64,000 nt of DNA from an uncultured Bacilli bacterium (GCA_947625575.1 CANQOV010000001.1:1498-65497), one strand, 5' to 3'; shown: positions 10,059-32,315, numbered from the stretch's first letter. The notes: generated by a model not told the origin, from the sequence alone. A program made the numbers and translations.

Positions 10059-10514
10059 GTGATAAAAATGAAATTTCATCATATTGGAATAGCAACAAAT
10101 AACATAGAAAGAACAAAAGAAAAATTACAAAAGTTTTTTAATGTAAAAGAAATATCAAATACCATATATGATAAAAATCAAGATGCGTACTTATGTATGA
10201 TCACTTTAGATGACAATATAAAAATTGAACTTATAAATGGCAAAGTAGTAGAAAATATTTTAAAGAAAAGACAATATCTATATCATACTTGTTATGAGAC
10301 AGATGATTTAGAAAATGAAATGAAAAAGTTAATAGATGATGGTGCTTTTCTTGTAAGTGATGCAAAAGAGGCAATTTTGTTTGATAACCAGAAAGTTGCT
10401 TTTTTGATGTGGGATTTAGGTCTCATAGAATTACTTCAAAAAGATATCCCGGGGGGGGTAATTTATAAAATCTTTTATAAATTATCAACAAATTTAGTAG
10501 GAGTGGTAGCATGA
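10059..10514 (+). CDS. VOC-family (glyoxalase / methylmalonyl-CoA epimerase fold) protein
   Basis: N-terminus MKFHHIGIATNNIER… is typical of VOC / glyoxalase-I-like enzymes. Contains a G8 homopolymer (10451-10458). Confidence 0.5.
   Translation: MIKMKFHHIGIATNNIERTKEKLQKFFNVKEISNTIYDKNQDAYLCMITLDDNIKIELINGKVVENILKKRQYLYHTCYETDDLENEMKKLIDDGAFLVSDAKEAILFDNQKVAFLMWDLGLIELLQKDIPGGVIYKIFYKLSTNLVGVVA
10451..10458 (+). repeat. G8 homopolymeric tract inside a CDS, 53 nt upstream of the overlapping MBOAT start
   Basis: CCCGGGGGGGGTAA, read directly. Gains or losses of one G create near-immediate stops (G7 gives …ccg ggg ggg TAA). Confidence 0.9.
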
Positions 10515-12048: not shown

Positions 12049-13101
12049 ATGAAAAATTATAAAAATTTAATAAAAGTTATAATATTTATTTTTATATTTT
12101 GTATATTATGGCATATAACATTTAAAATATTGTGGGGTGAAAATACAGCACTTTCTTATTTTTATGAAGAAAAAGAAAACACAATTGATGTAGCCTATGT
12201 TGGTGCTAGTAATGTTTACGTATACTTTAACACAACACTTGCATACAACGAATATGGTTTTACAACCTATAATATTGCTACCGACTCGCAACCATTTGTC
12301 TATATAAAATACCTCCTTAAAGAAATTCAAAAATACCAAAAACCAAAACTTTACATAATTGATATAACGAGAATTATTTCAAATCCAGATTATTATGATG
12401 AAAATTCAATAAGAAAATTAATTGATAGTATGAAAAAATCATATAATCAATATGAAGCTTTAACTAGTGTTTTGGATTATTTAGAAATGCCAAATGAAGA
12501 AAGAGTAAATTATTATTTTAGTTTTCTTTTATATCACAATAGATGGGAAGACTTTAAAGGGAAAAGTTTGACTGAAAATACAAATTTATATAAAGGTTTT
12601 CAAACAAAAAATTATAATTTCAATATTAAACCTCAAAAGAAAATATTATGGAATAATGATTCATCTATTAAAGTAACTGACAAAAATAAAGAAGTTTTGC
12701 TAGATTTATTAGAATATATAAATGATAATAATTTAAACGTACTTTTTACAATTCCATGTAGAACATTTAATGCTACAGAAATGAGTAAATTAAATGATGC
12801 AACCAAAATTATTAATAAATATGACTACCAAGTAATAAATTTTAATCAAAATGATTCTTACATTGATTACTCAAATGACTTATATAATCCAAATCATTTA
12901 AATATATATGGCTCAACAAAATTTACATTATATTTTGCCAAATATTTAGATAATATTTATAATTTGCCTGATCATAGAAATGATGAAAAATATTCATCTT
13001 GGGTTGAAGAATACAATAGATTTAAAAGCAAATATGAGCAAAAAACAAATAATAATTTTGAAGCTTTAGTCAAAGAATATAAAGAAAAATATAATTTTTA
13101 A
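12049..13101 (+). CDS. DltD/AlgJ-like membrane-anchored SGNH-fold protein (MBOAT partner)
   Basis: N-terminal TM anchor. Putative nucleophile block VAYVGASNVY and His block NPNHLNIYG. Sits immediately after the MBOAT gene. Weak motif-level call. Confidence 0.4.
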   Translation: MKNYKNLIKVIIFIFIFCILWHITFKILWGENTALSYFYEEKENTIDVAYVGASNVYVYFNTTLAYNEYGFTTYNIATDSQPFVYIKYLLKEIQKYQKPKLYIIDITRIISNPDYYDENSIRKLIDSMKKSYNQYEALTSVLDYLEMPNEERVNYYFSFLLYHNRWEDFKGKSLTENTNLYKGFQTKNYNFNIKPQKKILWNNDSSIKVTDKNKEVLLDLLEYINDNNLNVLFTIPCRTFNATEMSKLNDATKIINKYDYQVINFNQNDSYIDYSNDLYNPNHLNIYGSTKFTLYFAKYLDNIYNLPDHRNDEKYSSWVEEYNRFKSKYEQKTNNNFEALVKEYKEKYNF

Positions 13102-16195: not shown

Positions 16196-17503
16196 ATGAA
16201 AAAAAAGGTTTATATAGCAATGTCTGCTGATGTTATACATCAAGGTCACATCAATATCATCGAAGAAGGTGCAAAATATGGAGATGTAATAATTGGTTTA
16301 CTAACTGATGAAGCTATTGCTAGTTACAAACGCATGCCACTATTAAATTATGAAAATAGAAAAAAAATATTTGAAAATCTTAAAAATGTTACTGAAATAG
16401 TACCACAAAGCACGCTTGACTATACTGAAAATCTAAGAAAAATTAAACCAGATTATGTATTACATGGAGATGATTGGCGTACAGGAATTCAAAGTGTAGT
16501 TAGAGATAATGTAATTAATACCTTAAAAGAATGGAACGGAGAATTAATTGAAATACCTTATACTAAAGATGTAAATTCTACTGATTTAGAACATAAATAT
16601 CGTGAACTTACAAATACACCTGATATAAGAAGAGCAAAACTTCGTCAACTTTTAAAATTTAAACCATATATAAGTGTTATGGAAGCATCAAATGGATTAT
16701 CAGGATTAATTGTTGAAAATGCAACTGCCATTAATCGCGATAGTAAAACGACAAAAGAGTTTGATGCGATGTGGGTTAGTAGTTTATGTGATTCAACATT
16801 TAAAGGAAAACCTGATATTGAATTAGTTGATTTAACTAGTAGAATAAATACAATCAATGAAATATTGGAAGTTACTACTAAACCAATAATATTAGATGGT
16901 GATACTGGTGGTAAAATAGAGCATTTTGTATACAATGTTAAAACCTTAGAAAGACTTGGAGTTTCAGCTATTATTATTGAAGATAAAACAGGTTTAAAGA
17001 AAAATTCATTATTTGGTACAGAAGTTAAACAAACTTTAGATGATCCAGATAGATTTGCAGAAAAAATAAAAGCAGGAAAACAAGCTCTTGCAACAAAGGA
17101 TTTCATGATTTTTGCAAGATTAGAAAGCTTAATTGCTGGTATGGGAATAGATGATGCTTTATCAAGAGCTGATAAATATATCGAAGCAGGAGCAGATGGA
17201 ATAATGATTCACAGCAAAGAAAAAACAGGATTGGATATAAAAGAATTTTTAGAAAGATTTAAGAAAAAATATCATAATGTTCCAACAATAGTAGTACCTA
17301 CTTCATATAATCAATTTACAGAAGAAGAATTACATGAGTGGGGTGCAAATATAATTATTCATGCAAATCATTTATTAAGGAGTGCATATCCAGCAATGAT
17401 GAAAACAGCTAAAACAATACTAGAAAATGGCAGAAGCAAAGAAGCTGATGAGTATTGTATGCCAATAAAAGAAATTATAACATTAATTCCGGGGGGAAAA
17501 TAA
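16196..17503 (+). CDS. pepM: Phosphoenolpyruvate mutase (PepM/AepX) with N-terminal cytidylyltransferase-like (HxGH) domain
   Basis: N-terminus …[16 protein letters not shown]… (HxGH nucleotidyltransferase). C-terminal PEP mutase core …ILDGDTGG…IIIEDK…. Confidence 0.8.
17492..17497 (+). repeat. G6 tract at the pepM stop / ppd start junction
   Basis: …att ccg ggg gga aaa TAA a ATG… Loss of one G puts ppd in frame with pepM. Confidence 0.85.
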
Positions 17504-17504
17504 A

Positions 17505-18614
17505 ATGATAGATACAGAAGAATTTTACAAATATTTAATTAGTAAAAAACTTGATTTTTTTGCTGGTGTTCCTGATTCTTTATTAAAAAACTTATGTGCT
17601 TGCATTAAAGCTAACACTAAAACAGATCACAACATCATTGCTGCCAATGAGGGAAATGCTATTGCAATGGCTGCAGGATATCATATTGCATCAGGCAATT
17701 ATGGTGTCGTATATATGCAAAATTCTGGTATCGGAAATGCAGTTAATCCATTACTTTCTTTAGTAGATGAAGAAGTGTATAGTATTCCAATGCTATTAAT
17801 TGTAGGTTGGAGAGGAGAGCCGGGCACAAAAGATGAGCCACAGCATGTTAAACAAGGAAAAGTAACTATTGAATTATTTAAAACAATGGGAATTGAAACT
17901 ATTATTTTAGATGAAAATTATAAAAGCCAAATAGACTATTGTTATAATTATATGAAAGAAAACAATAAACCAATTGCTGTTATCATAAAAAAAGGTTTAT
18001 TTAGTAATTATAAAATAGATATGCCTGAAAACAATTATCAAATAAAAAGAGAAGAAGCTTTAGAAACAATATTAAAATGTTTAGATAAAGATGATTTTGT
18101 AGTTTCAACTACAGGAAAAACATCAAGAGAAATTTTTGAAATAAGAGAAAGAGATAACGAAGAACACAGTAATGACTTTTTAACAGTTGGATCTATGGGA
18201 CATACTTCATCTATTGCACTTGGTATGAGTATTGGGTGTGACAAAAATATTTATTGTATAGATGGCGACGGATCTTTTATTATGCATATGGGCTCTTTTG
18301 CCATAATTCCATCAGTAGCAAGTAAAAATTTTAAATATATTTTAATAAACAATGGTGCTCATGAATCTGTAGGAGGTCAACCAACTGTAGCATTTAATAT
18401 TAACGTTAAAGATACATTATTATCATTAGGTTTTAAAAATGTTTATACAGCATATACAAAAGAAGATATTGAAAAATATATGAAAAATTTAAAATACGAC
18501 AAATTACAAGCATTAGTAGTTTACACTAAATTAGGATCTAGAGAAGATTTAGGACGTCCTACAATTAGTCCTGTTGATAATAAAAAATCAATGATGAAAA
18601 AATTAAATAAATAA
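17505..18614 (+). CDS. ppd: Phosphonopyruvate decarboxylase (TPP-dependent)
   Basis: TPP-binding motif …CIDGDGSFIMHMGS… Size 369 aa. Immediately downstream of pepM. Confidence 0.75.
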   Translation: MIDTEEFYKYLISKKLDFFAGVPDSLLKNLCACIKANTKTDHNIIAANEGNAIAMAAGYHIASGNYGVVYMQNSGIGNAVNPLLSLVDEEVYSIPMLLIVGWRGEPGTKDEPQHVKQGKVTIELFKTMGIETIILDENYKSQIDYCYNYMKENNKPIAVIIKKGLFSNYKIDMPENNYQIKREEALETILKCLDKDDFVVSTTGKTSREIFEIRERDNEEHSNDFLTVGSMGHTSSIALGMSIGCDKNIYCIDGDGSFIMHMGSFAIIPSVASKNFKYILINNGAHESVGGQPTVAFNINVKDTLLSLGFKNVYTAYTKEDIEKYMKNLKYDKLQALVVYTKLGSREDLGRPTISPVDNKKSMMKKLNK

Positions 18615-18643
18615 CATTAAAATGGAGGAAGTAATAATATTCA

Positions 18644-19387
18644 ATGAAAGCAATAATATTTAATTCAGGAATCGGAAAAAGGATGGGGGATTTCACAAAA
18701 ACACATCATAAGTGCATGGCTGTACTAAATAATGGTGAAACAATATTAGAACGTCAAATAAGAATAATTGGTGAAAATGGAATAAATACATTTATCATCA
18801 CAACCGGTCCATTTAAGCAACAATTATTAGAAGTATGCAAAAAATTCCCTGATTATCAATTTGTTTTTGTTGATAATCCTTTATATCAAAAAACAAATTA
18901 CATATATTCCATGTATTTAGCAAAAGATTATCTTAATGATGATGTTTTATTGCTTCATGGAGATTTAGTATTTAATCAAGAACTAGTAAAAAGTATGCTA
19001 GGTGATAAACGTAGTTCAGTATGTTTAATAAATGAAGACAAACCATTACCTGAAAAAGATTTTAAAGCAAGGGTAGAAAATGGATTATTAAAAGAAGTAT
19101 CAATAAATATCTTTGATAGCAATTGTTATGCTTTTGAGCCATTATACAAGTTAAGTAAATCTGATTTATTAAAATGGCTAGAAAAAGTGAAAGAATTTGT
19201 AAATGAGGGCAATGTAAGCGTTTATGCCGAAAATGCATTGAATACTATATTAGACACATTAAAAATATATACTAAATCATATAAAAATGATTATATTGAT
19301 GAAATAGATAATATTGATGATTATTCAAGAGTTAGAAAAGAAATAGATGAATATGAAAAGAAAAGATTAAGATCTTTGAGAGGATAA
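18644..19387 (+). CDS. LicC/PntC-like cytidylyltransferase (NDP-activation of a phosphonate or phospho-alcohol)
   Basis: N-terminus MKAIIFNSGIGKRMG… gives the nucleotidyltransferase G-x-G-x-R motif. About 240 aa, as for LicC. Confidence 0.6.
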   Translation: MKAIIFNSGIGKRMGDFTKTHHKCMAVLNNGETILERQIRIIGENGINTFIITTGPFKQQLLEVCKKFPDYQFVFVDNPLYQKTNYIYSMYLAKDYLNDDVLLLHGDLVFNQELVKSMLGDKRSSVCLINEDKPLPEKDFKARVENGLLKEVSINIFDSNCYAFEPLYKLSKSDLLKWLEKVKEFVNEGNVSVYAENALNTILDTLKIYTKSYKNDYIDEIDNIDDYSRVRKEIDEYEKKRLRSLRG

Positions 19388-19388
19388 A

Positions 19389-21707
19389 ATGAAACAACAA
19401 ATATATATTGATAATTATAAAAATTTAAATAAAAAAATAGATTTTAAAAAATACAAATCAATTTTATTGATTTGTAGTAATTTTATTTTAGATTCATTTT
19501 TTTATGATTACATAACTAAATTGAATTTACCAATACATATTTTTACAAATTTTAGTCCTAATCCTAAATATGAAGAAGTTCTAGAAGGTATAAAAATTTT
19601 TAAAGAAAATAAATGTGATTTTCTTATAGCAGTGGGTGGAGGAAGTGCCTTAGACGTTGCAAAAGCTATCAAAGCTTTTGTGTTTTTAGATGAAAATAAA
19701 AATTATTTAGAGCAAAAAATAGTGCCAAATAATATACCACTTCTTGCTGTTCCAACCACTGCAGGAACAGGTAGTGAAGCTACAAAATTTGCCGTTATAT
19801 ATTACGCTGGAGCAAAACAGTCATTAGAAGATGAATCATTGCTTCCAGATTATGTAATACTTGAGCCAAAGTTTCTAGAAAGCCTACCAGAATATCAAAA
19901 AAAATCAACTCTTTTAGATGCTTTATGTCATGCAATAGAATCATACTGGTCAATTAATGCTACCAAAGAAAGTAGAAAATATGCCAAACAAAGTTTAGAA
20001 ATAATTCTTAAAAACTATAAAGATTATCTAAATAATCCAACAAAAAAATTAAATAGTGAAATATTAAAAGCAGCTAATTTAAGTGGAAAAGCCATAAATA
20101 TAAGTAAAACGACCGCAGCTCATGCCATGAGTTACAAAATAACATCAATATATGGTTTATCACACGGACACGCTGCTGCAACATGTCTTCCACTTGTATG
20201 GAAATATATGTTAAAATACTCTAACAAAGAATTAGATAAAATATTTAATGATTTAGATAAAATATTTAAGACAACTTCACACCAAGAATCTATTAATAAA
20301 TTGTATTCAATCTATGATGAAATAGGATTAAAATATAAAAACATTGTAAATAAAGAGGATTTAGATAAATTAGTGGAAACAGTTAATATAAATCGTTTAA
20401 AAAATAGTCCAGTACCATTAACACAAAAAGATGTGAAAAAGATATATAGTAAATTAGTTATAAAAGAAAACAAAACATTTAAAAAAAGTATTAAAAACGT
20501 CGTAAATAAAATTCCTTTCATCAAAAAAATATTAAATTATCTTTTATTAATAAAAAGGAAAGTAGTATATAAATTTTATAAAATACGTTACAAAACCAAT
20601 GATAAAATAATCATATTTTCATCTTTTTGGAGTAAAAAATATAATTGTAATCCTAAAGGTATATATGAAGCATTATTAAAGAACAAAAAATATAACGACT
20701 ATAAATTTGTTTGGGTATTTAAAAATCCAAAGCAGTACACTTTTTTAAATGATAACCATAATACCACAACAGTGCGTTTATATTCTAAAAAGTACTATAA
20801 ATATTGTGCACAAGCCAAATATTTTATAACTAATGTTTCATTACCTAGTTGGGTAACACCAAAGAAAGATCAAATATATATAAATACTTGGCATGGTAAA
20901 CCAATGAAAAAAATTGGTTGTAATATAGATCACTCTGCTTTACCACCAAAAAAACTAAAAAAGCAAACAAAAGGATTTAAAAGAAATGGCAAAATATTTA
21001 CCTACTTGTTTTCACCAGCACCATTTTTTACAGCACAAATGGCTACAGCCTATGGTCTTGGAAAAGATAGCAAAAAAGTTATTGAAGTAGGCTATCCAAG
21101 AAATGATTTTTTATTCACATATACAGCCAAAGATGCTAAAGAAATAAAAGATAAATTAAATATTAAAGATAATAAAAAAGTTATATTTTATGCTCCAACT
21201 TGGAGAAATTATGAATATGATACTAAAAAATATAGTTATACTTATCAAAATCATCTAGACTTTGATAAATTAATTAAACAACTAGGAAATGATTATGTAA
21301 TTTTATTTAAAGCCCACAATCAAGAAGAGAACAGTGCTGATATATCAAATTATAAAAATGTTATTGATGTTAGTAGTTTTGACGATATTAACGAATTGTA
21401 TATCATCTCAGATTTAATGATTTCTGATTATTCTGGAGCAATCTTTGACTATGCTAACTTACATCGACCAATGGTTTATTACATGTGGGATAAAGATGAA
21501 TATGTAAATGAAAGTCAAGGCATTGACTTTGATTTTAACGAATTGCCCGGAGAAATTGTTACAAAAGAAGAAAATTTAGCTTCTGCTATAAAAAATGCAT
21601 TAAATAATTTTAAGTATGATGAAAAATATAAAAAATTTAATGAAAGATATAATTGCTTAGATGGAAAAGATTGTGGAAATAAATTCATTGAAAAATATAT
21701 AAAATAG
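19389..21707 (+). CDS. Fusion protein: N-terminal iron-containing alcohol dehydrogenase (putative phosphonoacetaldehyde reductase) and C-terminal TagF-like CDP-alcohol phosphotransferase
   Basis: N-terminal …LIAVGGGSALDVAKAIKAF… is the group-III Fe-ADH signature. C-terminal …YINTWHGKPMKKIG… is the TagF-family motif. 772 aa. Confidence 0.6.
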   Translation: MKQQIYIDNYKNLNKKIDFKKYKSILLICSNFILDSFFYDYITKLNLPIHIFTNFSPNPKYEEVLEGIKIFKENKCDFLIAVGGGSALDVAKAIKAFVFLDENKNYLEQKIVPNNIPLLAVPTTAGTGSEATKFAVIYYAGAKQSLEDESLLPDYVILEPKFLESLPEYQKKSTLLDALCHAIESYWSINATKESRKYAKQSLEIILKNYKDYLNNPTKKLNSEILKAANLSGKAINISKTTAAHAMSYKITSIYGLSHGHAAATCLPLVWKYMLKYSNKELDKIFNDLDKIFKTTSHQESINKLYSIYDEIGLKYKNIVNKEDLDKLVETVNINRLKNSPVPLTQKDVKKIYSKLVIKENKTFKKSIKNVVNKIPFIKKILNYLLLIKRKVVYKFYKIRYKTNDKIIIFSSFWSKKYNCNPKGIYEALLKNKKYNDYKFVWVFKNPKQYTFLNDNHNTTTVRLYSKKYYKYCAQAKYFITNVSLPSWVTPKKDQIYINTWHGKPMKKIGCNIDHSALPPKKLKKQTKGFKRNGKIFTYLFSPAPFFTAQMATAYGLGKDSKKVIEVGYPRNDFLFTYTAKDAKEIKDKLNIKDNKKVIFYAPTWRNYEYDTKKYSYTYQNHLDFDKLIKQLGNDYVILFKAHNQEENSADISNYKNVIDVSSFDDINELYIISDLMISDYSGAIFDYANLHRPMVYYMWDKDEYVNESQGIDFDFNELPGEIVTKEENLASAIKNALNNFKYDEKYKKFNERYNCLDGKDCGNKFIEKYIK

Positions 21708-21719
21708 AAAGGGGTATTT

Positions 21720-24149
21720 ATGAATAAAAACATAAAAGTCTCGGTTATCGTTCCGGTGTATAATGTAGAAAAATATTTAGATAAATGTTTAACATCATTA
21801 GTTAATCAAACACTGAAAGATATTGAAATAATTGTAGTAAATGATGGTACCAAAGACAATTCACAACATATTATTGATAAATATACTAAACAATATCCAA
21901 ATAAGGTTTTTTCCTATATTAAAGAAAATGGTGGATTATCTTCTGCTAGGAACTATGGTGTTTTAAAAGCACACGGGGAATATTTAGGCTTTGTTGATAG
22001 TGATGATTACGTTGATATAAATATGTATGAACTTATGTACAATAAAGCTCATAACACTTCATCTGATATTGTTGTATGTGGACTTACTTCAATATATCAA
22101 AATAAAGATACTCTTAAATTTGTCCCTCAAACTGATATTTTTGGCTATTCACTTACAGAAAGTCCAGACATAATGTTGCAGTGTAATTCATATGCTTGCA
22201 ACAAAATTTATAAAAGAAAAATGTGGATAGATAACAACATTGAATTTCCTAATCAATGGTTTGAAGATAGTGCTTTAATATATAACGCTTTATATTATGC
22301 AAATAAAATTGAGGTGGTAAAAGAGCCACTTTACATGTACTTAAGAACTAATGAAAACTCTATTGTTAATACAATTAATCCCAAGATATTTGATATCTTT
22401 AAATCTTGTGATTCATTATTATCTTTTTATAAAGATAAAGGTAATGACTTATATAGAAATGCTTGCAACTTATGTATTTCCCATGTAACAGCAAGATTTT
22501 TATATTTTAAAAATTCTCACGATAAAAAAATTATCAATGATTTTAAAAATAAAGCCAAAGATTACTTTGATAAGCATATTCCAAATTGGGATAGTAGAAA
22601 ATATCAAAAAGAATTACATTATAGACCAAAATTCATAAAAAATGGTATCACATATATAAACAATAAATTTCTTTACGATTTACTAAAAATAATAGAAAAA
22701 ATAAAAAAAGTATTAATAAAAATTGCAAAGAAAATGTTAAGAATTTTATCAAAAATATTTAATAAAAAAAGAGATGTCGCTCCTCTTAAAGATGTATTTA
22801 AAATATTTAAAAAATTAAATATAACTTACTTTTGTGAATTTAACACTTTAATTGAAGTAACAAACAATAAAATGCCAAACAGTAATTCTTTAAATATTGG
22901 TATTATATTAAATAATGATAAAATTAATATTTTAAAATATAATTTACTACAAAAAAATATAATTTTAAAAAAAGAATATTACTACAATAATAAAGTATAT
23001 GCTCAAGATTATCTATACGAAAAATTAAAAATAAGATTTAATTTTTATGAAATAGAAGATAAAAAACTAATAACTTATGTTTTTAAAAAATTAAAAAATA
23101 TCAAATATAAACCATACAAAATAGATGCTTTAAAAATTAAACAAACAATAATAAAAGATATAGAAACAGTTAATATCAATAATATAGAATTTTCCATACC
23201 AAAAAACTATGATGAAATATTAAAAACAGATTATGGATTAAGCTATATTAAATCAAATAATATAAAAGACATAAAAAACTCTGAAATAATAAAAAACAAT
23301 TCTTATTTTAAAAGAATAATAAGTTATAATAATGATGGCATTGATTATAGAGAAGAAAATTATAAAATGCTACAAGAACTACATAAAATAGAGCTTGAAA
23401 TTCTAAAAGAAATAAATAAAATATGTAAACGCAATAAAATAAATTTCTATTTAGGTGAAGGGACATTACTAGGAGCAGTAAGACATCAAGGATTCATACC
23501 ATGGGATGATGATATTGATTTAATTATGCCAAGAGAAGATTATGAAAAATTCTTAAAAATTGCCCCACAAGAAATATCAAAAGATTTTGAAATTCAGCAT
23601 AGTTCTTTAATTGAAAATTATTGGTCTCCTTTTATTAAAGTAAGATATTTAAAAGAAAACAAATTTAAACAAACGCACATTGCACATTTAACTGATCATA
23701 ATGGTCCATTAATTGATATTTTCCCTTTAGATAATGTTCCAAAAAAAGATAGTTTAGGTCAAATGATACAAGCAATAAGAATCAAATTTAACCGAGGGAT
23801 GTTATCATATAAATTAAAAACAAGATTTCCTAAAAAGTGGAAAGGATATATTGTTAAATGTTGTTCTTACTTTGTAAGTGTAAAACATATTCATAAAGTA
23901 TTAAATAAAACTTTTGTTAAATACAACAATAAAAATAATCCATATATTGTTAATTTAGGAAGTTACTATAGTTATAAAAAACAAACACATCCTAAAAAAT
24001 GGTATGCTAAACCACAAATGGTAAAATTTGAAAATTTGACTATGCCAATACCACATGAGGCCAAAAAAATATTATCAAGTGTATATGGCAAATATATGGA
24101 ACTACCACCTGTTGAAAAAAGAGCTATAAAACATCACTTTGATGAATAA
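21720..24149 (+). CDS. Fusion protein: N-terminal GT2 glycosyltransferase, long K/N/I-rich middle region, C-terminal LicD-family phosphotransferase
   Basis: N-terminal …VSVIVPVYNVEKYLDKCL…VVNDGTKDN…GFVDSDD… is GT-A/GT2. C-terminal …GEGTLLGAVRHQGFIPWDDDIDLIMPRED… is the LicD motif. 809 aa. Confidence 0.65.
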   Translation: MNKNIKVSVIVPVYNVEKYLDKCLTSLVNQTLKDIEIIVVNDGTKDNSQHIIDKYTKQYPNKVFSYIKENGGLSSARNYGVLKAHGEYLGFVDSDDYVDINMYELMYNKAHNTSSDIVVCGLTSIYQNKDTLKFVPQTDIFGYSLTESPDIMLQCNSYACNKIYKRKMWIDNNIEFPNQWFEDSALIYNALYYANKIEVVKEPLYMYLRTNENSIVNTINPKIFDIFKSCDSLLSFYKDKGNDLYRNACNLCISHVTARFLYFKNSHDKKIINDFKNKAKDYFDKHIPNWDSRKYQKELHYRPKFIKNGITYINNKFLYDLLKIIEKIKKVLIKIAKKMLRILSKIFNKKRDVAPLKDVFKIFKKLNITYFCEFNTLIEVTNNKMPNSNSLNIGIILNNDKINILKYNLLQKNIILKKEYYYNNKVYAQDYLYEKLKIRFNFYEIEDKKLITYVFKKLKNIKYKPYKIDALKIKQTIIKDIETVNINNIEFSIPKNYDEILKTDYGLSYIKSNNIKDIKNSEIIKNNSYFKRIISYNNDGIDYREENYKMLQELHKIELEILKEINKICKRNKINFYLGEGTLLGAVRHQGFIPWDDDIDLIMPREDYEKFLKIAPQEISKDFEIQHSSLIENYWSPFIKVRYLKENKFKQTHIAHLTDHNGPLIDIFPLDNVPKKDSLGQMIQAIRIKFNRGMLSYKLKTRFPKKWKGYIVKCCSYFVSVKHIHKVLNKTFVKYNNKNNPYIVNLGSYYSYKKQTHPKKWYAKPQMVKFENLTMPIPHEAKKILSSVYGKYMELPPVEKRAIKHHFDE

Positions 24150-24368: not shown

Positions 24369-24397
24369 TTGACAGAGTCCGGGGGGGGGGTTATAAT
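24369..24397 (+). promoter_or_regulatory. Promoter with a homopolymeric G10 tract forming the -35/-10 spacer (candidate phase-variable promoter)
   Basis: TTGACA (24369-24374), spacer GAGTCC+G10+T = 17 nt, TATAAT (24392-24397). RBS AAGGTGG, then ATG at 24432. Confidence 0.5.
24381..24390 (+). repeat. G10 homopolymer (simple-sequence contingency tract)
   Basis: Ten consecutive G in an AT-rich genome, read directly. Confidence 0.95.
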
Positions 24398-24431: not shown

Positions 24432-25220
24432 ATGAAAGAAAAAATATTGTTATTTATACCAATGTATAACTGTGAAAAACAAGTAATAAGAGTTTTAAAT
24501 CAAATAGATAGCGAAGTAGCAAAATATATAAAAGAAATATTAGTAGTAAATAACCGAAGCACCGATAATGGTGAAAAAGCTGTGCTCGATTTCACCAAAC
24601 AAAGCAAGCTTAAAATTACTATAGTAAGAAATGATGAAAACTATAACCTTGGAGGATCACATAAAGTTGCTTTTCAATATGCAATTGATAATGAATATGA
24701 CTATGTAATTGTATTGCATGGTGATGATCAAGGTAATATTCATGATTTATTACCTTATCTTAAAAATGAAGATTATAAAAAATATGATTGTTTACTTGGA
24801 TCACGATTTATAAAAGGATCAAAATTACAAGGATATTCTAAATTTAGAACATTTGGTAATATAGTATATAACTATTTATTTTCTTTTGTAATTCATAAAA
24901 GAGTATATGATTTAGGATCTGGATTAAATATGTATTCTACTGAAATGTTAAAAAGCAATTACTATTTTAAATTCCCAGATAAATTAACATTTAACTATTT
25001 AATGGTATTAGCAATACATTACTATCATCAAAATGTTAAATTTTTCCCAATTACATGGAGGGAAGATGATCAAGTATCTAATGTTAAAATGGTTAATCAA
25101 GCATTTGAGGTTTTAAAAATGTTATTTAAATACATGTTTAATCATGATTATATAAAAAGTGAATTTAGAGATAAACAAGTACGAAAATATACATATAAGG
25201 AAATAAAAAATGACAAATAA
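24432..25220 (+). CDS. GT2 family glycosyltransferase (GtrB / polyprenyl-phosphate sugar synthase-like, soluble form)
   Basis: …LLFIPMYNCEKQV…VVNNRSTDN…VLHGDDQG… 262 aa. Confidence 0.65.
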   Translation: MKEKILLFIPMYNCEKQVIRVLNQIDSEVAKYIKEILVVNNRSTDNGEKAVLDFTKQSKLKITIVRNDENYNLGGSHKVAFQYAIDNEYDYVIVLHGDDQGNIHDLLPYLKNEDYKKYDCLLGSRFIKGSKLQGYSKFRTFGNIVYNYLFSFVIHKRVYDLGSGLNMYSTEMLKSNYYFKFPDKLTFNYLMVLAIHYYHQNVKFFPITWREDDQVSNVKMVNQAFEVLKMLFKYMFNHDYIKSEFRDKQVRKYTYKEIKNDK

Positions 25221-26088
25221 AAGTAAATGGATATATAATTTTATAAATATTGGATTTTTATTAATTACTTTAATATTCTTTTTTCAAAAACGTTTATATA
25301 TCATAAATCCAAATTTTACTATTTTTCAATTTTTCTTACTTGTTTTACTCATAATTTTTATTCACTCTTTAAAGTTTTTTAAACTTTATTTTATCGTATT
25401 AGAAGAAAAAATTCCTTTTAAAAATATGCTGAAAATATATATAAAATCAACTTTTTCTAGCATAGTATTGCCTTTTAAAATAGGAGAAATATATAAAGCA
25501 TATTTAATAGGTCATGAAATAAAAAATTATAAAAAAGGTATTATAGCAGTTCTTATTGATAAATTTTATGACGCAATAATTCTTTGCATATCCTTTATCT
25601 GTTATAGCATAATTGCAAATGTAACATTAACAATAACAACCTGGATACTTTTAATTATAATTATTATGATAGTAATTGTATATTATTCTTTTCCAGGAAC
25701 ATATCGCTATTTAAATCGTTTCTTTATTCAAGGCAAACACTCTAACAGAAACATATACGTTTTGCGTGTTTTAGAAAGTTTAGAAAGTTGTTATACAACA
25801 GCAAAAGAAATGATTTGTGGAAGAAGCCTTTTATTTGTTTCACTTGGAATATTTTACTGGCTAGGTGAATCTGTATTTATTTATTTTGTAGTACATGCTT
25901 ATGGATTATTAATAAATTTTGGAAACGTTGTTTTATATGTTAACGATGCCTTTTTAGGAATAAATAATCCTATTTTTAACGTTTATGTATCTATGTGTAC
26001 ATTATTATTTATAATTGCTATAGCATTTATATATTTTGAAAAATATTTTTTAGGAGGTAACAATGAAAAAGTTAGCAGTCATTTATGA
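25210..26088 (+). CDS. Polytopic membrane protein, flippase-like domain (LPG-synthase TM region / PF03706-like)
   Basis: About 8 TM segments. A …LPFKIGEIYKAY… motif is reminiscent of the PF03706 flippase-like family that commonly pairs with GT2 enzymes. Overlaps the upstream gene. Confidence 0.4.
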   Translation: MTNKSKWIYNFINIGFLLITLIFFFQKRLYIINPNFTIFQFFLLVLLIIFIHSLKFFKLYFIVLEEKIPFKNMLKIYIKSTFSSIVLPFKIGEIYKAYLIGHEIKNYKKGIIAVLIDKFYDAIILCISFICYSIIANVTLTITTWILLIIIIMIVIVYYSFPGTYRYLNRFFIQGKHSNRNIYVLRVLESLESCYTTAKEMICGRSLLFVSLGIFYWLGESVFIYFVVHAYGLLINFGNVVLYVNDAFLGINNPIFNVYVSMCTLLFIIAIAFIYFEKYFLGGNNEKVSSHL

Positions 26089-27484
26089 TGATAGAATAGA
26101 GTCAAATGATAGGATAAAAACAATTATTGGCAATAATAGTTTTGGTAACGTTGTCATAAAAAGAAAAAAATTATTTCAATACATAGAAGAAATAGTAGGT
26201 GAAACACCTGATATACTTTTTGAAAAAATTACAAAAGATAGCAACATCACTTTTGCAGATACCGATGATTACGTATATTTTTATATCAAATCAACATCAG
26301 CAGTAATAGATGTAAAAGAATTCAAAATTATATTAGAAAAATTAAGATACATCAACGAAACTACTAAAGTTATGACTAATGAAAAGATGTCAGGTATAGC
26401 TTTTTGTAATTTTGAATTGTTAAAAGACTTTTTAAAAAATATGACTGTTTCTTCAAAAACTAATCAAATAAATACTGCCTGCTTCTCTGATATATCTTCG
26501 TATGATAATTTATTAATGTATATTTCTAGTGCTTTTGATTCTAGATATTTTAATAGTATTTCAGGGGATAAATATTATGTAGAAAAAAAGAGCAAAGATA
26601 AAAAGAAAATGAAAATGGAATATAGCTATTACTGGTTAATTCCAGAAGAAATGAAAAGCTTTATGGTTTTACCATACGACTATAAAGAAGAAAAAGACTA
26701 TGCATCATATAAAATGGAAAGGATGCCTATGACAGACATTGCTATTCGTTTTACCCATCATGCCGTTGACCTAGATGAATTTAAAAAAATATTAGATAAA
26801 ACTTTTCACTTCTTCAATAGTAGAACTAAAAAAGAAATAACCAAAGAAAAATATATAGAAATGGCTAAATCATTATATATTACTAAAACAGAAGAACGTT
26901 TAAAAAAATTAAAAAGTACTGAAGAATATGAAACATTAAATTTATATATTAAAAATGGCACAAAATTTAATGATATAGAAGAAATTTACCAAGAATATGA
27001 AACAATTTATGAAAAAATGATGACAAAATATTTGAAAAAAGAAAAGAAATTTTATCAAGTAATTGGCCATGGAGATGTTTTCTTTGCCAATATGTTATAT
27101 AGCAAAGAAATAAATTTATTGAGACTTATTGATCCCAAAGGAGCTTTGACAGAAGAAGATTTATATATGAATCCTTATTATGATATTGCTAAATTATCAC
27201 ACTCAATATGTGGTAGATATGACTTTTTTAACACTGATATGTACGACATTACAATAAATAAAGATATGAAACTTGAATTAAATATTGATTTTGATAATAC
27301 ACCTTATATTATGGTATTCAAACAATATTTAGATGACAATGGTTATAACTATTCGTTAACCAGATTATTTGAAGCGAGTTTATTTTTATCAATGCTACCA
27401 CTTCATATAGATAATCCAAGAAAAGTATTAGGATTTATCTTAAATGCTATTACTATTTTACAGGAGGTAAAAAAATATGTATAA
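26063..27484 (+). CDS. Two-domain protein with C-terminal APH/choline-kinase-like small-molecule kinase domain
   Basis: Brenner-type catalytic motif …VIGHGDVFFANMLY… (HGDxxxxN) and downstream …RLIDPKG… The N-terminal 220 aa has no recognisable motif. Confidence 0.4.
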   Translation: MKKLAVIYDDRIESNDRIKTIIGNNSFGNVVIKRKKLFQYIEEIVGETPDILFEKITKDSNITFADTDDYVYFYIKSTSAVIDVKEFKIILEKLRYINETTKVMTNEKMSGIAFCNFELLKDFLKNMTVSSKTNQINTACFSDISSYDNLLMYISSAFDSRYFNSISGDKYYVEKKSKDKKKMKMEYSYYWLIPEEMKSFMVLPYDYKEEKDYASYKMERMPMTDIAIRFTHHAVDLDEFKKILDKTFHFFNSRTKKEITKEKYIEMAKSLYITKTEERLKKLKSTEEYETLNLYIKNGTKFNDIEEIYQEYETIYEKMMTKYLKKEKKFYQVIGHGDVFFANMLYSKEINLLRLIDPKGALTEEDLYMNPYYDIAKLSHSICGRYDFFNTDMYDITINKDMKLELNIDFDNTPYIMVFKQYLDDNGYNYSLTRLFEASLFLSMLPLHIDNPRKVLGFILNAITILQEVKKYV

Positions 27485-27878
27485 TGACATAACTTTAGTT
27501 TTTGATGTAGATGGCACTCTTTGTCCGATTAAAACTACTGATGAAGAATACAAAGACTTAATACCAGATAAAGAAATGGTTGAGAAATTAAAAATGTACA
27601 AAAAAGAGGGTGCCAAAATTATTATATATTCATCAAGAAACATGAGAACATATCAAGGCAACATAGGTCTTATAAATGCTAATACAGCTGTAATTATGCA
27701 AGATTGGTTAAAAAAATGGGATATTCCTTATGATGAAATATATTTTGGCAAGCCATGGGCAGGTAAAAAAGGAATATACATAGATGATCGTTGTGTAAGA
27801 CCTGATGAATTTCTAAATTATTCTTTTGATGAACTTGAACAAATATGTAAAAAATCTAGTAGAGTAAAAGGAGAATAA
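27477..27878 (+). CDS. Small HAD-superfamily phosphatase
   Basis: HAD motif I …LVFDVDGTLCP… and motif IV …GIYIDDR… 133 aa. Confidence 0.55.
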   Translation: MYNDITLVFDVDGTLCPIKTTDEEYKDLIPDKEMVEKLKMYKKEGAKIIIYSSRNMRTYQGNIGLINANTAVIMQDWLKKWDIPYDEIYFGKPWAGKKGIYIDDRCVRPDEFLNYSFDELEQICKKSSRVKGE

Positions 27879-27882
27879 AATT

Positions 27883-28602
27883 ATGCAAATAATTATAACT
27901 ATGGCAGGGTTAGGCTCTAGATTTCGTAAAGCAGGATATGACATGCCTAAATATATGATTGAAGTAAAAGGTAAAACTTTATTTGAGTGGTCTATGTCAA
28001 GCCTAAAAGATTTTAATTCTTTAGAAAAGTTAAAATACATATTCATTGTACGCAAAGAAGACAACGCTAAAGAATTTATCCTAAATAAAATGAAAAATGA
28101 AAAAGTAGAAAATATAAAAGTAATTGAAATAGATGAATTAACTGATGGTCAAGCTACAACAGCATATTTAGCAAAAGATTATTGGGATTCTGATGATGAA
28201 ATGATTGTTTACAATATTGATACTTATGTAGAAGCATATACTATATGTTATAAAGATATTAAAGGTGATGGCTTTATTCCTTGCTTTAATGCCCCAGGTG
28301 ATCATTGGAGCTTTGTAAAAACAGATAGTAATAACAAAGCCATAGAAATAAGAGAAAAAGTAAAAATATCTGATAATTGTACTATTGGATTATATTATTT
28401 TAAATCTTGTAAATTATATGAAAACTTGTATCAAGAATACTACAGCAACAATGACCACTTAGAAAAAAATGAAAAATATATTGCTCCTTTATATAATCAT
28501 ATGTTAGAAAAAAATATGGACATATATATAAATATCTTACCTAAAGAAAAAGTACATGTATTAGGAACACCAGAAGAAGTGGAAGAGTTCAAAAAATTAT
28601 GA
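27883..28602 (+). CDS. Nucleotidyltransferase (LicC / sugar-1-P or phospho-alcohol NDP-transferase-like)
   Basis: N-terminus MQIIITMAGLGSRF… is a G-x-G-S-R nucleotidyltransferase loop. 239 aa. Confidence 0.55.
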   Translation: MQIIITMAGLGSRFRKAGYDMPKYMIEVKGKTLFEWSMSSLKDFNSLEKLKYIFIVRKEDNAKEFILNKMKNEKVENIKVIEIDELTDGQATTAYLAKDYWDSDDEMIVYNIDTYVEAYTICYKDIKGDGFIPCFNAPGDHWSFVKTDSNNKAIEIREKVKISDNCTIGLYYFKSCKLYENLYQEYYSNNDHLEKNEKYIAPLYNHMLEKNMDIYINILPKEKVHVLGTPEEVEEFKKL

Positions 28603-30662
28603 AAAAATTATTAAATAATATATGGCAAATATATCATAAGTATGAAGAAATACTAAATTACTTAATAGTAGGAGCAATAGGAGTAGTAATTAGTGTTGTA
28701 TCATATGCCTTAAGCAGATGGATTGGTTTTAATATTGTAACAAGTAATATTATTTCATGGATAATTGCAGTTTTATGCATGTATATCATGAATAAACTTT
28801 TTGTATTTAAAACTAAATTAGAGAATAAAAAAGCATTATTTAAAGAATTTATATCATTTATTACAGCCAGAGTATTCACTTTGATTGTAGAAACACTAAT
28901 CCTTTACTTTGGAACAAATTTACTACATATTAATGATTTATTTGTTAAGGTCATAGCACAAATAGTAATAATTATTTTAAACTACATATTAAGTAAATTA
29001 ATTATATTTAATAAAAACAAAAATCCTAATTCTAAAAAAAAAATACTAAATCGCTTTAATTTTTTATTAGACAAAAAAGTGTTTTTAATTTCTTCAATAA
29101 TATGGCTTATTTATTTTATTACAGGAATCCAAGATAGATTTTTCATAAATAATAATCTATCTTTCAAATCAATATTGCCATACAAAATATTACAATTCAT
29201 ATTATTTTATTTTTTTGGTTTAATAGTTAAAAAAATAATTAGTAATAGAAAAGATATAAAATGTAAACATGGCATTATAATTGGTACCGTATTCGCTATA
29301 ATTATGTTTATATTACTACTAACAATGTGGCCTGGTACTTGGTCATGGGATGATGCTATAACATTAAGGCATGCTCAAACTTATACTATATATCCTTGGC
29401 AACATTTTATTTGTTCTTTGTTCTATATTGTTAGTTTAGAAACATTTCCATTTATGAGCGGAGTTATTATAATGCGTATCATAATAATTTCTATCATTAT
29501 GGGCTATAGTATTTCTAATATTGTTGATATATTCAAAAAAACAGAAAAACAGAGAATAACATATGAAATATTTTTATTAATACCAAGTTTATTTCCTCCA
29601 GTAATTATGTATACTTTATCAGGATATCGAATGGGAATATATAGTTTTATTGAACTACTTTTAATTGTACAATTAATAATAATATTTTATAAAAAGAAAA
29701 AATTAACAATAGGAAATTTTATAGGTTTAGCATTTACTATAATTTTAGTTGCTTCATGGAGAACTGAAGGTATTTACTATATTCCTTGTGTAGCACTTAT
29801 TCTTTTATTCCTAAACAAAAAAATTATACCTAGAAAACAAATATTAACTTTATTTATTATTACGTTAAGTTTTACAATGATAATTAATAAAGTCAATACA
29901 TCTTTAATAGCAAATGATAATTACTCTATAACAGCCATTGTAGAGCCTTTACAAGCATTAATCAAAAAAGCAGATCCTAACGAAGATAAAAGCACATTAC
30001 AACAAATAAGTAGGGTGATTGATATAGACTATATTTATAACAACCCAAATTTGCATGGCGAACAACTTTACTGGAGCCATAAATTAGTAAAACCTAATTA
30101 CAGTAAAGATGACTTTAAAGCCTTATTTAAATCTTATATCAAATTAACTTTAAAATATCCATTAACTTCCATAAAAGCAATGACTAAAATGTATTTAAAA
30201 AGCAGTGGAATTATTTTAAAAAAAGATGGTACTGTTTATCAAAAAACTAATATAAGTCAAGCTTTGACATTATATAATGATGATAACACAGCATGGAGTA
30301 GCATTAGAAACATTAAATCTAGTTTTAAAAAAGCCTCTTCTATAAGAAATCAAACTATGCTTTTATTACGAGGATTTAATAATGACAATAAACCCAATAT
30401 TATTCATTATATATTTTGGAACTTAAACATACCAATTTTATTATTATCGCTATGTTTTATATATAAATTATTTAAAAAAGATTGGTTTTTTAGTAGCATA
30501 ATATTTGTAGTTATGTTAAGAATACCTTTGGTATTTATCACATCTCCAGCACCATACTACATGTATTATCACTCAGTATATTTAATAACATATATAATTG
30601 TATTTTTAATTTTAATAGAAGCTATATTTAATAGTAAAAATAAAAAAGATAATTTAAAATAA
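28599..30662 (+). CDS. Large polytopic membrane protein with N-terminal GtrA-like domain fused to a 550-aa multi-TM (GT-C/GtrC-like?) region
   Basis: Residues 1-130 match GtrA-family topology/sequence (…YLIVGAIGVVISVVSYALSRW…MNKLFVFKT…). Then 12 or more TM segments with periplasmic loops. 687 aa. Confidence 0.45.
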   Translation: MKKLLNNIWQIYHKYEEILNYLIVGAIGVVISVVSYALSRWIGFNIVTSNIISWIIAVLCMYIMNKLFVFKTKLENKKALFKEFISFITARVFTLIVETLILYFGTNLLHINDLFVKVIAQIVIIILNYILSKLIIFNKNKNPNSKKKILNRFNFLLDKKVFLISSIIWLIYFITGIQDRFFINNNLSFKSILPYKILQFILFYFFGLIVKKIISNRKDIKCKHGIIIGTVFAIIMFILLLTMWPGTWSWDDAITLRHAQTYTIYPWQHFICSLFYIVSLETFPFMSGVIIMRIIIISIIMGYSISNIVDIFKKTEKQRITYEIFLLIPSLFPPVIMYTLSGYRMGIYSFIELLLIVQLIIIFYKKKKLTIGNFIGLAFTIILVASWRTEGIYYIPCVALILLFLNKKIIPRKQILTLFIITLSFTMIINKVNTSLIANDNYSITAIVEPLQALIKKADPNEDKSTLQQISRVIDIDYIYNNPNLHGEQLYWSHKLVKPNYSKDDFKALFKSYIKLTLKYPLTSIKAMTKMYLKSSGIILKKDGTVYQKTNISQALTLYNDDNTAWSSIRNIKSSFKKASSIRNQTMLLLRGFNNDNKPNIIHYIFWNLNIPILLLSLCFIYKLFKKDWFFSSIIFVVMLRIPLVFITSPAPYYMYYHSVYLITYIIVFLILIEAIFNSKNKKDNLK

Positions 30663-30789: not shown

Positions 30790-31575
30790 ATGAAAAAATT
30801 CTTTAGTGATATAAAAAAATATTTTAAATACATAATTGCTTCTACTAAAGCCGAATTAAATAGTGAAGTAGCAAATTCCTATTTAGGTTGGCTTTGGTGG
30901 TTGCTTAATCCGTTATTTTTTATGCTAATATATTGGTTTATATCAGTAATTGTCTTTAGAACAAAGCAAGATTATTTTGCAGCCTTTGTTTTTATAGGTA
31001 TTTCTATTTGGGATTTCTTTAATCATGTTGTAAATGTAAGTCCAAAACTTATTGCCAATAATAAAGATATAGTAAGTAAAGTATATGTACCAAAATATAT
31101 CTTACTAATTCAAAAAATATGTGTTAATTTCTTTAAAATGTTGATTTCTCTTTTATTAGTAGCAATCATGATGGCTTTATATAACGTTAATATTTCCCTT
31201 AGAATTTTAAACTTTATTCCTATCATTTTCGTATTAGTTATTGTAACATTTGCTGTAGCATCATTATTATTACATTTTGGTGTTTTTGTTGAAGATTTAG
31301 TTAATATAACCAACGTTCTTTTAAGATTAGTATTCTACTTATCAGGAATTTTCTACATGGTATCCACAAGAATACCAGCACCATATAATCGTTACCTACT
31401 ATGGTGTAATCCAATTGCATATTTTATTCAAAGTTCCAGAGATTGTCTTTTATATAACAAAGCTATTGACTATCGAATACTATTTGTCTGGTTAATAATT
31501 GGAACTATTGTGTCAATAATTGGTATAAAAACAATAACAAAATACGAAAACAGTTATGTTAAGGTGATAAAATAA
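30790..31575 (+). CDS. tagG: ABC-2 type polymer export permease (TagG/Wzm-like)
   Basis: 261 aa, 6 TM, ABC-2 family organisation. Followed by an overlapping ATPase gene. Confidence 0.7.
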   Translation: MKKFFSDIKKYFKYIIASTKAELNSEVANSYLGWLWWLLNPLFFMLIYWFISVIVFRTKQDYFAAFVFIGISIWDFFNHVVNVSPKLIANNKDIVSKVYVPKYILLIQKICVNFFKMLISLLLVAIMMALYNVNISLRILNFIPIIFVLVIVTFAVASLLLHFGVFVEDLVNITNVLLRLVFYLSGIFYMVSTRIPAPYNRYLLWCNPIAYFIQSSRDCLLYNKAIDYRILFVWLIIGTIVSIIGIKTITKYENSYVKVIK

Positions 31576-32315
31576 TGAAAAATAATAAGAATATAGCTAT
31601 ATCAGTAAAAAATCTTGGTTTAAGTTATCGTGATATTAAAAAATTCTCAATAAGAAAAACTCTTTTTTCAAGAGAAAAATCAACTCTTTACACAGCTTTA
31701 AAAGATATTTCTTTTGAAATACCAAAAGGTCAAATTGTTGGAATATGTGGTAAAAATGGAAGTGGTAAATCAACTCTTTTAAGAGCACTTGCAGGAATAT
31801 TTTCTGCCGACAAAGGAACTATTGACTTACATAATAATACAATCTCTTTACTATCAATTGGAGTTGGCTTTCAAAAAAAATTAACAGGTCATGATAACAT
31901 CTATTTATCTGGTATGCTTTTAGGTTTTTCTAAAGAACAAATTGATCAAAAATACCAAGAAATCGTAGACTTTTCTGAATTGGGTGATTTCATAAATAAA
32001 CCAGTTGCTTCATATTCATCTGGTATGTATTCAAAACTTGCATTTTCAATAACCGCTATCCTAGAAACCGATATTATTTTAATAGATGAAGTTTTATCAG
32101 TTGGAGATGTTGCCTTTAAAGAAAAAAGCTACAACAAAATGAAAGAATTAATATCTGATGAAAATAGAACAGTCTTAATAGTATCTCACTCATCAAAAAC
32201 TTTAATTGATCTATGTGATCGTGTAATTTGGATTCACGATGGTTTAGTAAAAGAAGATGGCTCTCCAACAGAAGTTGTAGAGCATTATGAAAATTTTATA
32301 AAAAATCAACTATAA
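31575..32315 (+). CDS. tagH: ABC transporter ATP-binding protein (TagH/Wzt-like)
   Basis: Walker A GKNGSGKST, signature YSSGMYSKLAFS, Walker B ILIDEV. Confidence 0.8.
   Translation: MKNNKNIAISVKNLGLSYRDIKKFSIRKTLFSREKSTLYTALKDISFEIPKGQIVGICGKNGSGKSTLLRALAGIFSADKGTIDLHNNTISLLSIGVGFQKKLTGHDNIYLSGMLLGFSKEQIDQKYQEIVDFSELGDFINKPVASYSSGMYSKLAFSITAILETDIILIDEVLSVGDVAFKEKSYNKMKELISDENRTVLIVSHSSKTLIDLCDRVIWIHDGLVKEDGSPTEVVEHYENFIKNQL

Follow-up and report, generated by a model that had tools for sequence, protein, structure and literature searches.

Which substituent might be built, carried across the membrane and attached by six tightly packed genes of an uncultured Bacilli bacterium, and to which polymer? 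The question is raised by positions 24432-30662 (+ strand) of a 64,000-nucleotide stretch of DNA (GCA_947625575.1, CANQOV010000001.1:1498-65497; GC content about 25%), called here the window, in which a glycosyltransferase and two membrane proteins are encoded together with a kinase, a phosphatase and a nucleotidyltransferase (NT). An earlier note on this DNA, made from the sequence alone, had read the genes as a Gtr-like three-component glycosylation system containing a dedicated route to a substituent activated as nucleoside diphosphate (NDP) derivative. This reading is supported by the domains, folds and catalytic motifs described below. The operon is real and coherent, and it is a member of a large unstudied cassette. 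We propose, with a probability of roughly 0.65, that it encodes a module, complete in itself, for glycosylating a wall polymer outside the cytoplasm, the polymer being most likely the wall teichoic acid produced by the flanking genes.

The operon and its conserved cassette

The six open reading frames (ORFs) were found exactly at the coordinates claimed for them. In operon order, they encode a GT2 glycosyltransferase (24432-25220, 262 aa), an LPG_synthase_TM protein, abbreviated LPGtm (25210-26088, 292 aa), a two-domain kinase protein (26063-27484, 473 aa), a HAD phosphatase (27477-27878, 133 aa), the NT (27883-28602, 239 aa) and a fusion of GtrA to a GT-C domain (28599-30662, 687 aa). Each ORF is preceded by a Shine-Dalgarno-like sequence. 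The first three junctions overlap by 11, 26 and 8 nt and the last one by 4 nt, whereas HAD and NT are separated by a 4-nt gap; the description of all six ORFs as linked by overlaps of 4 to 26 nt was therefore a slight overstatement, correct for four junctions. A terminator scan gave no intrinsic terminator-like site at any gene junction of the operon. Its single terminator-like hairpin lies inside the kinase ORF (about 26196-26210), at chance level (2 found, compared with a mean of 1.4 after shuffling). No Rfam match was obtained within the window. The ORF pattern is not a product of chance, since more than 80 other genomes have these genes in identical order.

Database searches with the kinase returned about 1900 relatives, all of them unnamed, and an exact look-up of its sequence found no contig. 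In a scan of one genome per GTDB species, confirmed relatives were present in at least 565 species genomes, mostly of Lachnospiraceae, other Clostridia, uncultured Bacilli and Saccharibacteria, with few isolates (e.g., Konateibacter, Lachnotalea, Salinibacillus). The best GTDB-representative match to the kinase, among the matches listed, is 58% identical. Gene order was compared in 87 loci. The order GT2-LPGtm-kinase-HAD is invariant in all of them, and NT and the GT-C protein usually come next; GtrA, found by iterated search in 66 of the 87, is usually a separate gene. The commonest architecture, GtrA-GT2-LPGtm-kinase-HAD-NT-GT-C, is present in 31 loci. Judged by homology, this cassette is conserved throughout the species genomes mentioned above, and it is new. 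Many cassettes, including many of those in Lachnospiraceae, contain an insert of 3-6 kb that splits HAD from NT. In Konateibacter massiliensis (L049, 9813-13498) the insert encodes an unassigned 226-aa protein, a CotH kinase, a VTC-domain protein and DUF4956.

The proposed donor enzymes and the E. coli K4 trio

The C-terminal part of the kinase protein (aa 169-473; 26567-27484, +) is a small-molecule kinase domain with the bilobal APH/choline-kinase fold, the HxDxxxxN motif and a downstream metal-binding Asp. The residues H336-G-D338, N343 and D357 (27068-27133, +), as well as K175/K182 and E186, are conserved across 87 kinase sequences. The HGDxxxxN motif of the kinase and the GLGSRF motif of NT, both noticed before, are present as HGDVFFAN (H336-N343) and MAGLGSRF and are invariant across the family; in the alignment, the catalytic Asp and Asn and the Mg-binding Asp of the kinase are all kept. 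NahK is among the structural neighbours of the kinase. No Pfam family is matched by the 473-aa protein, and the PDB sequence search gave no match for the kinase and none for the 687-aa fusion. The N-terminal alpha/beta domain (aa 1-168; 26063-26566, +) is modelled with high confidence (AF2 pLDDT about 90) and has an NT-like fold that lacks the GxGxR loop. Its one non-kinase Foldseek neighbour is the sugar-1-phosphate nucleotidylyltransferase ST0452 (5z0a, E 5e-4). The sequence profile of this domain had no match in the PDB, and Gram-negative homologues show a weak PF00483 match at its position. A 'YDD' motif in this domain was considered as receiver-like or HAD-like and was dropped, the other signature residues being missing.

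The phosphatase is a capless HAD-IIIA enzyme with DxDxT (D10, D12, T14), K92 and D103-D104, all motifs being at least 97% conserved. It matches the EcbF/BcbF capsule biosynthesis phosphatase family TIGR01689 at 2e-43 and just under its cut-off (147.4 against 162 bits), PDB entry 1xpj at 2e-35, and the HADs of E. coli capsule and O-antigen loci at 39-50% identity. NT is of the sugar-1-phosphate type, with a conserved G9xGxR13...K23 signature. It matches PDB entry 4evw at 5e-41 and NCBIfam families of sugar-1-phosphate NTs at 1e-11 to 1e-7, under the equivalog cut-offs; its identity to the NTs in E. coli loci, K4 among them, is 31-35%. The solved structures nearest to HAD and NT, 1xpj and 4evw, come from Vibrio cholerae, an organism with fructose in its O1 core; this is no more than a lead. 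Literature searches on bcbF/ecbF, 'capsule biosynthesis phosphatase', 9IQW and PF03706 gave nothing useful, and the trio of kinase, HAD and NT is not covered in the transition-transferase paper of Litschko (2024). The synthesis of CDP-glycerol by the trio was also considered and was dropped, since the loci concerned encode ordinary GCT.

Distant homologues of the kinase, flanked by homologues of HAD and NT, were found in polysaccharide loci of Citrobacter and E. coli (tblastn against plasmids). When one such homologue was used to seed a search of E. coli genomes, 124 of them proved to have the trio, placed in kps or O-antigen loci. One of these loci (L092) has the order kpsMT, galE, a 535-aa protein, a 686-aa GT2, a 477-aa protein, HAD126, a 522-aa protein, NT243, ugd and GT2, and it is considered a K4-type locus because one source names the 686-aa protein chondroitin synthase. 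In blastp, the operon HAD is 39% identical to HAD126 (3e-34), the kinase is 29% identical to the 522-aa protein over the kinase domain (3e-19) and NT is 35% identical to NT243 (8e-46). The profiles of the two kinase families align along the whole kinase domain (hhalign probability 99.95, E 1e-38). The trio is homologous and adjacent in both systems, and this strengthens the view that kinase, HAD and NT form a dedicated route to an NDP-activated substituent.

Primers for the deletion of kfoE, a gene of the K4 locus, were published (PMC7429809). Their homology arms map without mismatch to 10220-10270 and 11839-11888 of L092, and the span removed is exactly the 522-aa ORF, which means that KfoE is the kinase homologue. 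Deletion of kfoE leads to unfructosylated chondroitin, and KfoE is called a fructosyltransferase in this literature (PMC10609508, PMC8858990, PMC7429809). KfoE is thus required for the beta-fructofuranose branch of K4, and the loss of fructose is the only genetic phenotype known for the family. By sequence, KfoE consists of an NT-like domain and an APH kinase and is flanked by HAD and NT (L092 9899-12566); for this reason, it is more plausibly a donor-making enzyme than a transferase. If KfoE makes the donor, the transferase of the K4 fructose branch lacks an assigned gene.

The substituent of the operon, which was previously held to be unreadable from sequence, is therefore not wholly so: through the K4 homology, fructose becomes a testable lead, and fructofuranose appears to be the best single candidate, with odds somewhat short of even. 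In the literature, no paper defining a nucleotide-fructose donor (UDP-, CDP- or GDP-fructose) was found. A search for KfoE homologues returned about 2000 'capsular biosynthesis' or hypothetical proteins without functional names, mostly from Vibrionaceae and Aeromonas, and none from Campylobacter among the top 120. In C. jejuni, HS1.08 is required for the fructose branches of HS:1 (PMC7901785). It was sought in metagenome contigs by means of the primers published for it. Of two scans, one gave no match and the other a match attributed to chance, in a contig of 40% GC. In the O-antigen locus of E. coli O78 (L093, 5798-11728) and in an O-antigen-like locus of a Citrobacter plasmid (L088), the HAD/kinase/NT trio is accompanied by WavE-family proteins. 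This hints that the O78 antigen and that of the Citrobacter plasmid might carry an unreported, possibly acid-labile substituent.

The proposed membrane steps and the promoter

The earlier assignments of GT2, PF03706 and GtrA domains were all recovered in Pfam. GT2 belongs to PF00535 (1e-15). It has no transmembrane or hydrophobic segment and should be soluble. Its best long NCBIfam matches are polyprenyl-phosphate glycosyltransferases (AglJ, Dol-P hexose transferase, ArnC and PpgS; E 1e-7 to 4e-4, far under the cut-offs), and its PDB matches include DPMS (5mlz) and ArnC (9hwj). Polymer-acting GT2s are also among the latter, namely chondroitin synthase and 5tze, listed by the tool as 'Glycosyl transferase' only and taken by us to be the wall teichoic acid glycosyltransferase TarP. 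The polyprenyl-phosphate matches, together with the context, suggest that GT2 is a polyprenyl-phosphate sugar synthase. LPGtm is a polytopic MprF-type LPG_synthase_TM protein (PF03706, 3e-16, 60 bits against a cut-off of 33.4) and directly follows GT2 in 86 of the 87 loci; a PDB sequence search with the protein or its profile gave no match. Since GT2 lacks a transmembrane segment and a polytopic PF03706 protein always follows it, LPGtm is its obvious membrane partner, and it is predicted to act as such and/or as a flippase. GacI/GacJ provide a precedent for a soluble GT2 that works with a membrane helper (PMC8035078).

The last gene of the operon joins two domains. Its GtrA domain (aa 21-137, four transmembrane helices; 28659-29009, +; PF04138, 1e-21, 77 bits against a cut-off of 26) is a candidate lipid-sugar flippase. 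The rest of the protein (aa ~155-687; 29061-30662, +) has a polytopic GT-C glycosyltransferase fold, as the 687-aa protein was expected to have, and contains the family-invariant motif WPGxWSxDD (aa 244-252; 29328-29354, +). From the helix count and the positively charged loops, we infer that this acidic motif faces outward, in a loop predicted to be extracytoplasmic. In structure, the domain comes closest to Dol-P-Man enzymes, ArnT and AftB, all of which use polyprenyl-monophosphate sugars. Its description as GtrC-like needs correction: no Pfam family matches the C-terminal 530 aa, nor the C-domain of any of 24 family members, except for one weak DUF2142 match, and by sequence the domain is neither GtrC nor YfhO (PF09586). 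GtrA-YfhO fusions match through their GtrA part only. The family of the GT-C domain comprises 1338 clusters at 50% identity. The claimed fusion of GtrA to the transferase is present in this operon, but it is a local variant, GtrA being mostly a separate gene in relatives. Where fusions do exist, GtrA stands at the N-terminus of GT-C (this operon and P0404) or at its C-terminus (P0135, P0377 and L015); the two orders point to independent fusion events and functional coupling. Other GT-C members, of about 720 aa, have a different, unassigned N-terminal extension of about 200 aa. The mean column identity is 68% for GT2, the most conserved cassette member, 41% for LPGtm and 34% for GT-C. The much stronger conservation of GT2 than of GT-C fits one donor and diverse acceptors.

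Upstream of GT2 lies a sigma-70-type promoter (24369-24397, +), consisting of TTGACA (24369-24374), a 17-nt spacer and TATAAT (24392-24397); no other site in the region matches the consensus at 12 of 12 positions. Its spacer contains a G10 homopolymer (24381-24390, +), between the -35 and -10 hexamers, a candidate slipped-strand phase-variation switch. By chance, 0.02 runs of at least G8 would be expected in the window. The same promoter design was found in two related uncultured Bacilli, as TTGACA-ct-G10-tatgc-TATAAT (L011) and TTGACT-cattc-G9-tatat-TATAAT (L026). Three independent metagenome contigs of 2-3x coverage are otherwise identical to the window. One of them starts inside the G tract. 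In another, of 3145 bp, the sole difference is a 1-nt deletion in the spacer, which is 16 nt instead of 17. This indel is only suggestive of length variation in a phase switch. Phase variation through a promoter-spacer homopolymer occurs in Neisseria porA and opc, where a G/C homopolymer lies between -35 and -10, as it does in the promoter described here, and slippage alters the spacer length. We know of no report of promoter-spacer switching for glycosylation cassettes of gut Firmicutes.

Other poly-G tracts were observed in this lineage. L026 has a further G9 tract (5496-5504) directly before TATAAT, upstream of an unrelated small gene, and L068 has four tracts of G8-G12; such switches may be common among the related Bacilli, judging from these tracts. 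In the window itself, a second tract, G8 at 10451-10458, is located about 55 nt upstream of an MBOAT-family gene (10511-12040); it falls in the 3'-terminal part of an ORF that resembles glyoxalases (10059-10514). The neighbouring genes are an FkbH-like one (8031-9809) and an ORF of 350 aa without assignment (12049-13101). This region may be a second phase-variable surface-modification unit.

From a proposed mechanism to biology

The mechanism proposed for the operon would start with a sugar phosphate of central metabolism, which kinase, HAD and NT would convert to an NDP-sugar. Two pathways with the same three chemistries are known: HddA/GmhB/HddC makes GDP-heptose, and MupP/AmgK/MurU serves UDP-MurNAc salvage. 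GmhB, like the operon phosphatase, belongs to HAD-IIIA; AmgK and NahK, which are paired with an NT, are anomeric kinases of the APH fold, and HddA is a GHMP kinase. In the likeliest route, which would follow the logic of HddA/GmhB/HddC, anomeric phosphorylation to a bisphosphate is followed by removal of the distal phosphate and nucleotidylation; in the alternative order, that of MupP/AmgK/MurU, the phosphatase would act before the anomeric kinase and NT. The operon trio shows no sequence-level membership in either pathway, and its kinase has the additional NT-like N-domain. For fructose, the route would run from fructose 6-phosphate through fructose 2,6-bisphosphate and fructose 2-phosphate to NDP-D-fructofuranose. 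Soluble GT2, docked on the MprF-type membrane protein, would then transfer the sugar to undecaprenyl phosphate, and the lipid-sugar would be flipped by the GtrA domain and/or LPGtm. Outside the membrane, the GT-C domain fused to GtrA would move the sugar to the polymer by means of the invariant DD motif. Transcription would proceed from the consensus promoter, and slippage in G10, altering the 17-nt spacer, could turn the decoration ON or OFF.

A wider proposal, which we consider tentative and would not bet on, is that the cassette carries out lipid-linked ketose glycosylation. An unrecognised nucleotide-fructose pathway, undecaprenyl-phosphate-fructofuranose and a new GT-C family would together place acid-labile fructofuranose on the teichoic acids and wall polysaccharides found in hundreds of gut species (Lachnospiraceae, other Clostridia, Bacilli and Saccharibacteria), in a phase-variable manner in the lineage studied here. 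The same pathway would account for the fructose donor of E. coli K4, and probably for that of other fructose-bearing Gram-negative glycans; KfoE would be a donor-synthesis enzyme and no transferase.

Several observations weigh against these proposals. There are two candidate flippases, GtrA and LPGtm, and the polyprenyl-phosphate specificity suggested for GT2 is drawn from weak long-range matches and from context, a strong family match being absent. In hhalign, the N-domain of the kinase protein does not align with the N-domain of Gram-negative KfoE. The identity to the K4 trio is only 29-39% and the sugar may differ. The kfoE deletion was possibly polar on the downstream NT, and the trio is also present in E. 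coli loci such as O78, for which, to our knowledge, fructose is not reported. The spacer indel lies at the G/T boundary of the tract, and homopolymer sequencing error is possible in contigs of such low coverage.

The low identity to the K4 proteins would also be expected if the same machinery carried another sugar (another ketose, a heptose, a pentofuranose or an amino sugar) and the link to K4 were one of a shared enzyme family only. The E. coli KfoE-like proteins are mutually only 35-41% identical and are found in very different loci, and APH-fold sugar kinases act on many sugars. However, all three enzymes stay together in synteny and co-vary all the way from Firmicutes to Proteobacteria, their motifs being invariant and specific to the family, and the single known phenotype is the loss of fructose; another sugar is possible, with the odds clearly against it. 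The amino-alcohol or phospho-alcohol named in the earlier note among the potential substituents is unlikely. In such a scheme, kinase and NT would act like LicA/LicC to give a CDP-amino-alcohol or CDP-polyol, but the strong relatives of NT are sugar-1-phosphate NTs, choline and ethanolamine need no HAD step and the KfoE phenotype concerns a glycosidic fructose branch. Moreover, the LicA/LicC route supplies its products to LicD or TagF-type enzymes rather than to a set of GT2, GtrA and GT-C (PMC8035078). A non-sugar substituent is accordingly given hardly any weight.

A different question is whether GT2 acts at the membrane at all. It might be an ordinary cytoplasmic Leloir transferase working on the growing polymer, with GT-C/GtrA doing other work, such as polymer ligation or polymerisation. 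The missing transmembrane segment and the PDB matches to polymer-acting enzymes (chondroitin synthase and 5tze, presumably TarP) would fit this. Yet GT2 is invariably coupled to a polytopic membrane protein, usually with GtrA and GT-C nearby, the GT-C relatives depend on polyprenyl-monophosphate sugars, and the soluble state of GT2 has the GacI/GacJ precedent (PMC8035078), which makes a Leloir role very improbable. As for the promoter, the poly-G tract could be incidental, the operon constitutive and the indel an assembly error; the variant contigs have a coverage of 2-3x only and the indel is scored at the T adjoining the tract. Against this stand the rarity of such runs in DNA of 25% GC, the position of the tract exactly between perfect -35 and -10 hexamers, the G9/G10 tracts at the same place of the same cassette's promoter in two other species, and the fact that the only difference in 3145 bp falls in the spacer. 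An incidental tract is therefore considered unlikely.

The genes around the operon bear on the acceptor. Upstream, they encode TagF-like glycerophosphotransferases, a phosphoenolpyruvate mutase-cytidylyltransferase fusion, phosphonopyruvate decarboxylase, an Fe-ADH (iron alcohol dehydrogenase)/TagF-like fusion and a GT2/LicD fusion. Downstream, 127 nt further on, follows a TagG/TagH-like ABC-2 exporter pair (30790-32315, +; PF01061, PF00005), which likely exports the acceptor polymer; the gap before it holds a separate promoter-like site but no terminator. SpoIVB and then SpoIIM are encoded further downstream. From these flanking genes, the host, a low-GC gut Firmicute, is considered a spore-former and the operon part of a teichoic-acid-type locus. 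The phosphonate pathway within this locus (16196-24149), consisting of the mutase fusion, the decarboxylase, a MobA-like NT and the Fe-ADH and GT2/LicD fusions, suggests that the same polymer might also be decorated with hydroxyethyl- or aminoethyl-phosphonate. Between about 34000 and 42000, the GC skew changes sign, and the gene orientation turns from + to - near 41.5 kb, as convergent replication in a terminus-like region would give.

In Shigella and Salmonella phages, GtrA, GtrB and GtrC glucosylate the O-antigen; GtrB has C-terminal transmembrane helices and uses UDP-glucose, and GtrC is serotype-specific. The three-role logic and the GtrA family (PF04138) are the same as in the operon, whereas the phages have no precursor genes and no fusion, and their GtrC is not detectably related by sequence to the operon GT-C domain. 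The HAD (126 aa), KfoE (522 aa) and NT (243 aa) of E. coli K4 are homologous and syntenic with the operon trio and share its family-specific kinase motifs. However, the Gram-negative trios, including those of other E. coli and Citrobacter capsule and O-antigen loci, serve polymers that are completed in the cytoplasm and exported by ABC transporters, and, unlike the operon, they are not linked to GT2, LPGtm, GtrA or GT-C. Gram-positive multi-component systems (CsbB/GtcA/YfhO, GtlA/GtcA/GtlB, CsdAB-CflA and GacI/J/K/L) are known to add only glucose, galactose or N-acetylglucosamine from housekeeping UDP-sugars (PMC8035078, Table 1). They follow the plan proposed for the operon: a GT2 of GT-A fold makes an undecaprenyl (C55)-phosphate-sugar, flipping is presumably done by a GtrA-type protein, and the lipoteichoic acid, wall teichoic acid or wall polysaccharide is then decorated outside by a GT-C enzyme. 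In contrast to them, the operon has its own putative donor pathway of kinase, HAD and NT. Its GT2 has a PF03706 protein of the MprF type as partner, its GtrA is joined to a GT-C domain outside Pfam and not to YfhO, and a poly-G promoter precedes it. The three-component pentofuranose systems of Citrobacter youngae O1/O2, with GT136, resemble the proposed mechanism in their dedicated lipid-linked donor of an unusual furanose, its flipping and GT-C transfer after polymerisation; their donor is made from phosphoribosyl pyrophosphate (PRPP) by polyprenyl phosphoribose synthase and flipped by a MATE protein, with no kinase/HAD/NT, GT2 or GtrA (PMC11127046).

Phage receptors, antibody epitopes and recognition by host lectins are determined by the way in which teichoic acids and wall polysaccharides are decorated outside the cell. 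The cassette would bring in a further sugar, one that requires a separate route of activation, in gut bacteria and in epibiotic Saccharibacteria, and its GT-C domain defines a sizeable family without a Pfam model. The poly-G promoter would offer a natural ON/OFF pair for glycan analysis. If the link to K4 is true, it would provide a concrete hypothesis for the activated donor of bacterial fructofuranosylation, and the annotation of KfoE would be corrected.

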